Below, one piece after another: positions 35,775-36,445 of a stretch of DNA of 64,000 nt. The DNA is taken from the NCBI RefSeq assembly GCF_000026545.1, contig NC_011601.1; one strand, 5' to 3'. Position 1 is the first letter of the stretch. The number at the start of each line of letters is the position of its first letter. The notes below the pieces were generated by a model. That model was not told the origin of the DNA. It saw only the letters and a list, made by a program, of their open reading frames with translations, and made no database searches. Origin of the DNA: Escherichia coli O127:H6 str. E2348/69 (GTDB taxonomy: Bacteria > Pseudomonadota > Gammaproteobacteria > Enterobacterales > Enterobacteriaceae). Made by a program: the position numbers and the translations under genes.

Positions 35775-36445
35775 CGTTAAATCAGATATCTTATCGCTGA
35801 CCTGGCGCGGCAACGGATTGTCTTTGCGACATTTCTCTGCAACTCAAACAAGGTGAATGGCTGGCGCTGACCGGCGACAATGGCGCGGGAAAATCGACGC
35901 TGTTACGAGTAATGGCAGGTCTTCTTACGCCCACAGCCGGTACGGTTATGCTGCAACAACAAGCGATGAAAAACCTGAAAAACCGCCAGCGCGCGGCAAA
36001 GATTGGCGTACTGTTTCAGGAAGCGGAAAATCAGCTTTTTCACAGCACCGTTGCTGACGAAATCGCATTTGGTTTGATACTGCAAAAATGCCCGGCGGAT
36101 GAAATCACTCAACGTACCAATGCTGCCCTGCAATGCTGTCAGTTAGCAGACACTGCCAGCGCGCATCCGTTAGATCTGCATAGTGCGCAGCGACGGATGG
36201 TCGCCGTCGCCTGCCTGGAAGCACTCTCTCCGCCACTATTGCTACTGGACGAGCCGAGTCGGGATTTTGACGAAAATTGGTTGAGCGTGTTTGAAAGCTG
36301 GCTGGAAAAGTGCCGCCAGCGAGGCACGAGCGTCGTAGCAATCAGTCATGACGCCGCATTTACCCGGCGTCATTTCTCTCGTGTGGTGCGACTGGAAGAT
36401 GGTGTAATCAGGAACGTTAATCCATCAGACGATATTCACCCGTAG
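35768..36445 (+). pseudogene. second ECF ATPase (EcfA'-like) interrupted by an in-frame TGA at codon 11
   Basis: ATG at 35768 overlaps the upstream stop; frame reads MLTLNQISYR-TGA-PGAATDCL…LTGDNGAGKSTLL… (Walker A), degenerate signature LHSAQRR, Walker B LLLLDEP, ISHD; the first in-frame ATG after the TGA (35912) lies past Walker A. Confidence 0.6.

Follow-up and report, generated by a model that had tools for sequence, protein, structure and literature searches.

How two neighbouring operons come to run into each other with no DNA to spare between them, and whether such a contact is a device or an accident of history, is the question raised by a short segment of the chromosome of Escherichia coli O127:H6 str. 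E2348/69 (assembly GCF_000026545.1, contig NC_011601.1). Within the stretch of 64,000 nucleotides that we analyzed (hereafter the window), the second ATPase gene (A2) of an ECF-type transporter operon meets the oppositely oriented gene yggC tail to tail. The initial annotation of this window considered the contact unusual for an insertion boundary, and suggested either that the transporter module is ancestral and has been lost elsewhere, or that the two transcripts interfere by antisense overlap.

Anatomy of the overlap

The ORF list, the sequence and the RefSeq annotation all bear out the 29-bp convergent overlap that had been noticed between the ATPase ORF and yggC, and agree exactly on its limits (Table 1). 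The plus strand of this segment encodes the final eight codons of A2 and its stop (..N-P-S-D-D-I-H-P-stop), while the minus strand encodes the final eight codons of yggC with its stop (..G-E-Y-R-L-M-D-stop), together with two bases of the ninth. Across the overlap, codon position 1 of A2 lies opposite position 1 of yggC, position 2 opposite position 3, and position 3 opposite position 2; therefore, a synonymous change in either gene alters the protein encoded by the other. The same A2 and yggC ends are annotated by RefSeq/PGAP in E2348/69 and in six other E. coli strains.

Table 1. Coordinates of the features discussed in the text (positions within the window)
Feature	Position	Strand	Evidence or remarks
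Conserved GACTGAAACGCTTCAGCTAG upstream of epd	33105-33125		Within the part common to both haplotypes
Left-hand homology limit, epd-module intergenic region	33170-33240		Homology lost past TTTATTCCA, just beyond the epd promoter region
Leader 5' of the PPC-domain gene	33225-33368		About 140 nt
Leader palindrome GTGGAATTTATTCCAC	33225-33240		
Module without A2	33369-35774	+	PPC-domain protein, S, T, A1
PPC-domain protein	33369-33800	+	PF03479 on orthologs, annotation
ECF S component	33823-34401	+	PF12822 on orthologs, annotation
T component	34402-35109	+	PF02361 (weak) on orthologs, annotation
ATPase A1	35097-35774	+	PF00005 on orthologs, annotation
A2, second ATPase (EcfA'-like) of the ECF-type operon	35768-36445	+	225 codons; PGAP "internal stop"
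Premature TGA, A2 codon 11	35798-35800	+	TGG (Trp) in six other strains
A2/yggC tail-to-tail overlap	36417-36445	both	29 bp; ORF list, sequence, RefSeq
Stop codon of yggC	36417-36419	-	TAA (reads TTA on the plus strand)
Stop codon of A2	36443-36445	+	TAG
yggC	36417-37130	-	237 aa, nucleoside/nucleotide kinase family protein; NCBIfam NF006742 match and annotation
Right-hand haplotype step, inside yggC	36650-36690		Sliding identity; 92-100% to the right, 55-73% to the left (3' third of yggC)

A2 and yggC thus form a convergent overlapping pair in the strict sense of opposite-strand ORFs with common 3' nucleotides. Both are real genes with homologs or family matches reaching to their ends, but A2 is a pseudogene in E2348/69. 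YggC matches the NCBIfam family NF006742 over its full length (residues 1-237 of 237; 518.7 bits against a cut-off of 402), and its gene is the final one of the cluster cmtBA-yggP-glpX(yggF)-fumE(yggD)-yggC. Homologs of A2, which is annotated as an ABC ATPase, number 2373 at E<=1e-10. The overlap is kept in other genomes, which rules out an artefact of annotation or sequencing.

The ATPase gene is inactivated in E2348/69

Codon 11 of A2 is a premature TGA in E2348/69, and the strains with TGG at this position include ones that are 99.3% identical to E2348/69 across the region. A2 is a pseudogene in E2348/69 and an intact gene of 225 codons in six other E. coli strains. The ATPase ORF had first been read as 35912-36445 (177 aa); the 3' end of that reading stands, and its start does not, the ORF being the remainder past the TGA of the gene that begins at 35768. 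The transporter is probably defective in E2348/69 or in its narrow lineage. Since A2 is inactivated by the early stop, the overlap has no translational meaning for A2 in this strain.

A few Salmonella-like homologs of the ATPase (P0033, P0036, P0042, P0057 and P0073) are 279 aa long and bear a long low-complexity tail past ...RLENGRLSKG. In these, it looks as though a stop codon is missing and the predicted frame runs on into downstream sequence, and they may represent another instance of the same labile 3' end of the ATPase gene.

The ECF-type transporter module

The operon to which A2 belongs codes, in order, for a PPC-domain protein, the S component, the T component, A1 and A2. The presence of S, T and ATPase genes in a single operon, with matches on orthologs to PF12822, PF02361 (weak) and, twice, PF00005, identifies it as an ECF-type transporter. 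The ATPases reach 122-149 bits against the curated ECF ATPase families TIGR04520 and TIGR04521, short of the cut-offs of 315-330, and they are accordingly classified as ABC ATPases of the ECF type by best match only (NCBIfam ECF_ATPase_1/2, below cut-offs). For the S component, the similarity to the CD3073 family is only weak, at 136 bits where the cut-off is 180.

T and ATPase genes of their own are a feature of dedicated (group I) ECF transporters, among them BioMNY and CbiMNQO. The module agrees with these in combining an S component (PF12822), a T component (CbiQ, PF02361) and ABC ATPases (PF00005) in one operon. It departs from them in that its ATPases are short, lack the usual C-terminal extension and fall below the ECF ATPase cut-offs, in that a PPC/DUF296-domain gene heads the operon, and in that A2 is disrupted in E2348/69. 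We also observed that the module always adjoins epd, with the PPC/DUF296-domain gene coming first, and that both ATPases are unusually short at 225 aa.

In at least seven genera, the leader that precedes the PPC-domain gene shows strong conservation. It contains the palindrome listed in Table 1, a second palindrome CTGA(C/T)TTATATCAG, a TATTAT box resembling a -10 element, and a hairpin, TCCGAG-TYT-CTCGGA, that carries a GGAG ribosome-binding site in its 3' arm and displays one compensatory change in Superficieibacter. A riboswitch was considered and rejected, as RNAalifold on nine genera gave two small hairpins only, with one compensatory pair. The leader has no Rfam match and no larger covarying structure, which leaves a promoter, an operator and a small translational hairpin; hence, the leader is probably a promoter and operator followed by a small hairpin that masks the Shine-Dalgarno site. 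Further upstream, the conserved GACTGAAACGCTTCAGCTAG before epd looks like the operator of Cra (FruR) that is known from the promoter region of epd-pgk.

Spread of the overlap and constancy of its frame

An 86-bp probe spanning the overlap finds a match of at least 90% identity in 3319 of the 5426 complete E. coli genomes, and in all of the matches listed both genes are annotated beneath it. To survey a wider range of genomes, we scanned for yggC in one genome per species, which yielded 67 loci, located the module genes by tblastn and extended each gene to its stop. At all 23 loci, in about eight genera, where A2 adjoins yggC, the two genes overlap tail to tail, by 11-92 bp; the taxa include five species of Escherichia, Salmonella, Citrobacter, Silvania, Superficieibacter, Phytobacter and others. 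The overlap measures 29 bp in 11 Escherichia loci (E. coli, E. albertii, E. whittamii, E. marmotae and L006, an E. coli-like locus labelled Citrobacter), 32 bp in Salmonella enterica, 44 bp in six Citrobacter species and in one contig whose protein bears the name Atlantibacter hermannii, 26 bp in Silvania, 41 bp in two Superficieibacter, 68 bp in C. koseri, 92 bp in Enterobacteriaceae UBA5654 and 11 bp in Phytobacter. At these loci YggC ranges from 235 to 252 aa and A2 from 221 to 235 aa.

Each of the eight distinct lengths leaves a remainder of two when divided by three; therefore, the relative reading frame of A2 and yggC is identical everywhere. To us, this constancy points to a single ancestral junction, which would have been followed by point changes shifting either stop codon.

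The survey also drew attention to the labels of two assemblies. In the metagenome-assembled genome "Citrobacter sp. HRGM_Genome_0066", the proteins of L006 are 91-98% identical to those of E. coli, and a second yggC locus (L023) is Citrobacter-like, which suggests that L006 is E. coli contamination of the bin. The locus L030, labelled Chryseobacterium sp. 18061, has an enterobacterial epd-yggC arrangement, and it agrees with Citrobacter sp. 18056 (L032) in the C-terminus of YggC and in its tblastn identity profile; a wrong label or contamination is probable.

yggC dictates the overlapped sequence

The C-terminal motif of YggC, ..M-T-x-x-G-E-Y-R-x-x-stop, is kept in the module-less C. braakii, Raoultella, C. 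amalonaticus, Lelliottia and Enterobacter, as well as in two Escherichia genomes whose A2 was destroyed by a deletion. As the motif persists both without the module and with A2 destroyed, the constraint on the shared segment is that of yggC. A protein alignment, in turn, has the tail of A2 differing in sequence between genera, and its semi-conserved part, P-D-D-I-H-P, is what G-E-Y-R-L reads on the opposite strand. Judged from these alignments, the A2 tail (VNPSDDIHP) is a passenger whose sequence is dictated by the conserved C-terminus of YggC.

Beyond the TAG of A2, the next in-frame stop lies 55 codons further, the antisense frame of yggC being open; therefore, a junction without a stop is expected to yield an A2 extension of just this kind. 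Between module-plus E. coli and Citrobacter, yggC is most conserved in the bin formed by its last 60 nt (0.85 versus 0.62-0.77), which could reflect a dual-coding constraint, and thus some constraint on the A2 tail.

A natural control beside tktA

Several genomes, namely Citrobacter (L075/L076), Klebsiella pasteurii (L077/L078) and Leclercia (L084), lack the cmt-yggC cluster altogether, and their module faces tktA instead. There A2 is 216-219 aa long, as against 225, and ends 6-9 codons earlier, followed by a spacer of 53 bp in Citrobacter, 161 bp in Klebsiella pasteurii and 44 bp in Leclercia. A remnant of yggC was sought in these A2-tktA spacers and not found. In Citrobacter and Klebsiella the spacer contains an A-tract, a GC-rich hairpin and then T-rich sequence, which in Klebsiella forms a clear run of T. 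For the Citrobacter stretch, folding gives a z-score of -2.33. These spacers look like bidirectional terminators.

Homologs of A2 align up to ...RVVRL-E-x-G-x-L and diverge beyond this point: the short forms stop two to seven residues on, whereas those adjacent to yggC continue into tails that end in ...IRNVNPSDDIHP in E. coli, ...PSDIRP in Salmonella and ...PDMHHRPSSPA in Citrobacter. The complement of the yggC stop in E. coli corresponds to A2 codons 217 and 218, where the short homologs end; therefore, what overlaps yggC is a tail of A2 that lies outside the conserved ATPase core.

These short forms bear on the possibility that the overlap is a recent accident, in which the ATPase lost its stop lately and the extension is spurious read-through. 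The initial annotation had named homologs ending before position 36417 as the observation that would speak for it, and in part this is what we see, for the tktA-adjacent homologs do end earlier and the A2 tail is poorly conserved between genera. The extension itself, however, is old, and it is fixed across the genera. A2 of 225 aa with an identical TAG occurs in the 3319 E. coli genomes, in three further species (E. albertii, E. whittamii and E. marmotae) and in a remnant from a cryptic clade; the large clusters of E. coli A2 proteins, with 503-1367 members each, are all of 225 aa; overlaps in the same frame occur in seven further genera; and A2 proteins of other genera are 66-73% identical to that of E. 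coli, arguing against recent transfer from E. coli. We therefore give a recent accident hardly any credence.

Haplotypes of the locus in E. coli

The module occurs in 61% of E. coli genomes; about 39% of the complete ones lack it, and in these epd and yggC are spaced 284 bp apart. This patchy presence raises the possibility that the overlap is the edge of a horizontally acquired island, with the module inserted beside yggC and its right end resting on the yggC stop. In Citrobacter, the comparison of module-plus and module-minus species does give this picture, as the identity of yggC is uniform up to the stop codon and the limit of the indel falls there. In E. coli it does not: when the haplotypes with and without the module are aligned, they diverge 230-270 bp away from the overlap, inside yggC, so that the overlap is not an insertion boundary in this species and the limit of presence and absence lies elsewhere. 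Identity to a module-minus genome is 92-100% across fumE, glpX and most of yggC, and drops to 48-73% over the last ~250 nt; the same step is found in three module-plus strains of different lineages.

At the protein level, the YggC alleles of module-plus and module-minus genomes are 93% identical over residues 1-154 and 65% identical over the remainder. Module-plus YggC diverges evenly from that of Citrobacter (0.75-0.78 and 0.71-0.77 in the two parts), as vertical descent predicts, while the C-terminal third of module-minus YggC is the outlier, with an amino-acid identity of 0.53-0.67 to the non-Escherichia sequences compared. The K-12-type haplotype is probably a replacement via recombination, with one crossover inside yggC. 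A search for the donor of its yggC 3' third, using the 77 C-terminal residues, returned E. coli fragments only; among 37 yggC loci compared, the best non-Escherichia match has 67% amino-acid identity. As an observation in its own right, yggC is a mosaic gene in E. coli, with two classes of 3'-third alleles that share only 55-73% of their DNA sequence and are linked to the presence or absence of the module (36417-36690 of the window versus positions 3283-3540 of the module-less locus L002).

The usual marks of mobility are likewise missing from the module: the annotation has no integrase, transposase or tRNA gene, no flanking direct repeats were found, and the GC content (52-59% in the module versus 47-57% in the flanks) undergoes no strong shift. 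Moreover, all other Escherichia species sampled have the module or its remnants. On the other side stands a peculiarity of the module-less spacer. Directly past the yggC stop (L002 3225-3283, and likewise L014, L020 and L021), it harbors a long nested hairpin, TTATTCCAG..CGTAATAAT..ACGG..CTGGAATAA, which is conserved in E. coli, Citrobacter and Raoultella and the left arm of which, TTATTCCA, coincides with the left breakpoint of the module indel. Taking both sides together, we regard an island edge as quite improbable. This hairpin lacks a T-tract and is therefore not a canonical terminator. An apparent homology between its right arm and the last codons of A2 was judged to be due to chance, as only 5 of 7 positions match and the two are offset by 5 nt.

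An apparently ancestral module in Escherichia

The 29-bp overlap recurs with the module in E. albertii, E. whittamii and E. marmotae, and the A2 of E. ruysiae, also of 225 aa, has a tail of the same kind. Two cryptic-clade genomes have remnants: in Escherichia sp. E1V33, residues 1-27 of the PPC-domain protein are joined to residues 138-225 of A2, which still overlaps yggC, and in Escherichia sp. MOD1-EC7003 a fragment of A2 (residues 144-203) is left. With these remnants, which lie beside yggC, loss of the module by deletion is documented; together with the outlier 3' third of module-less yggC, they make the module the older state in Escherichia. Hence, from these comparisons the module looks ancestral in the genus, and within Escherichia the suggestion of an ancestral module lost elsewhere fits the data.

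Over the family as a whole, the epd-tktA region occurs in four arrangements: the module with the yggC cluster, the yggC cluster only, the module only, and remnants. The module-less epd-yggC spacer, with its long hairpin, is conserved across genera, and therefore both the module-plus and the module-less states are old. As to how the junction was founded, either the yggC cluster was inserted against A2, or the cluster was deleted in the genomes in which A2 adjoins tktA.

Transcription across the junction

It had been noted that the overlap leaves no room for separate terminators, and this holds. The intergenic distance between A2 and yggC is negative; a scan with terminator and promoter consensus sequences found no terminator-like site within ~400 bp of the junction on either strand; and the RNA downstream of each stop does not fold better than shuffled sequence (z-scores of -0.23 and -1.09). 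An Rfam scan of 32900-37300 at a permissive threshold returned a chance hit to IRES_Bip only; neither the overlap nor the operon leader matched a riboswitch or sRNA. Bidirectional intrinsic terminators are known between convergent genes, and the junction of the same ATPase gene with tktA in Citrobacter and Klebsiella fits that description; the A2/yggC junction differs from them in having no hairpin with a T-tract and in that the genes themselves overlap.

Antisense regulation between neighbouring operons, through excludons or overlapping 3'-UTRs, is a concept from Listeria and Staphylococcus. The A2/yggC locus shares with the excludon the presence of adjacent units on opposite strands with no terminator between them, such that complementary RNA would have to form. 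One might accordingly see the overlap as a selected antisense device of this type, in which transcription of each unit dampens the other via polymerase collision or cleavage of the RNA duplex. The missing terminators would fit such a device, and the hairpin terminator found when A2 faces tktA (in the two genera examined) makes their absence here a real difference; moreover, no genus sampled in which the two units adjoin each other has given up the tail-to-tail contact, a persistence that could be read as selection instead of a mere absence of spare DNA. Nevertheless, the length of the overlap is not conserved, varying from 11 to 92 bp, and the conservation of its sequence is accounted for by the C-terminus of YggC alone. 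Each unit is also widespread by itself, as epd-yggC without the module or as the module beside tktA without yggC, and yggC lacks this partner in 39% of E. coli genomes. Further, the two units have no functions known to oppose each other, and in E2348/69 A2 is already a pseudogene. On balance we consider a selected antisense device unlikely; nothing in the analysis requires an excludon-like role. Very doubtful, too, is the more elaborate proposal of a mutual-exclusion switch, in which an uptake system for an unknown substrate and a cryptic sugar-alcohol/fructose-bisphosphatase cluster would silence each other reciprocally by convergent transcription.

Origin of the junction

In our assessment it is highly probable that the overlap is the frozen junction of two convergent operons, and nothing that we found marks it as a functional device. 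The ECF-type operon heads for the 3' end of the cmt-yggC cluster with zero DNA between them. The core of A2 (...RVVRLEDGxIR) ends at the position of the yggC stop, where A2 has no stop of its own, so that its frame extends across the antisense of the final yggC codons. In E. coli the frame is then halted by a fortuitous TAG 29 bp in, leaving VNPSDDIHP as a non-conserved tail. The junction would have arisen once, before the split of Escherichia, Salmonella and Citrobacter, and would have been inherited since, with only the two stop codons drifting. Both transcripts would end inside the opposite gene, by Rho-dependent termination or polymerase collision, and no regulatory purpose need be invoked. 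The overlap is thus an old and inherited one of an ordinary kind, and we infer that the A2 tail is dispensable.

Relation to known convergent overlaps

In E. coli K-12, 75 convergent overlapping pairs have been counted among 4131 adjacent pairs, and convergent overlaps have been attributed to movement of the stop codon (PMC4161906). Across 338 genomes, 7% of the well-characterised overlaps are convergent; extension of the 3' end is the standard model for their origin, and they are the class that is most often real (PMC2478687). The account of their creation by movement or loss of stop codons is credited to Rogozin et al. 2002, as that work is cited in PMC2478687. Like these known prokaryotic cases, A2 and yggC are real genes on opposite strands with common 3' ends, one of which is extended relative to its homologs, and their overlap is short (<60 bp) and conserved among related genomes. 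The pair goes beyond them in two respects. It comes with a natural control, namely the A2 genes beside tktA that have their own stop and, in the two genera examined, a terminator; and it provides a series of lengths from 11 to 92 bp in one conserved frame over about eight genera. The papers that we found on convergent overlaps contain no description of the A2/yggC pair, and a search on yggC and its neighbours gave nothing related.

Conclusions

The conserved 29-bp convergent overlap of A2 and yggC is an ordinary member of a common class. It carries little weight for biology at large, as bacterial genomes have many convergent overlaps of a few tens of bases, and that of A2 and yggC behaves like the others. 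Its value is modest and lies in offering a clean worked example of how convergent overlaps form and persist. For the locus itself, the picture is corrected on three points: in Escherichia the module is of long standing, the module-less haplotype of the K-12 type has a yggC whose 3' third is strongly divergent, and the ATPase gene is dead in E2348/69.
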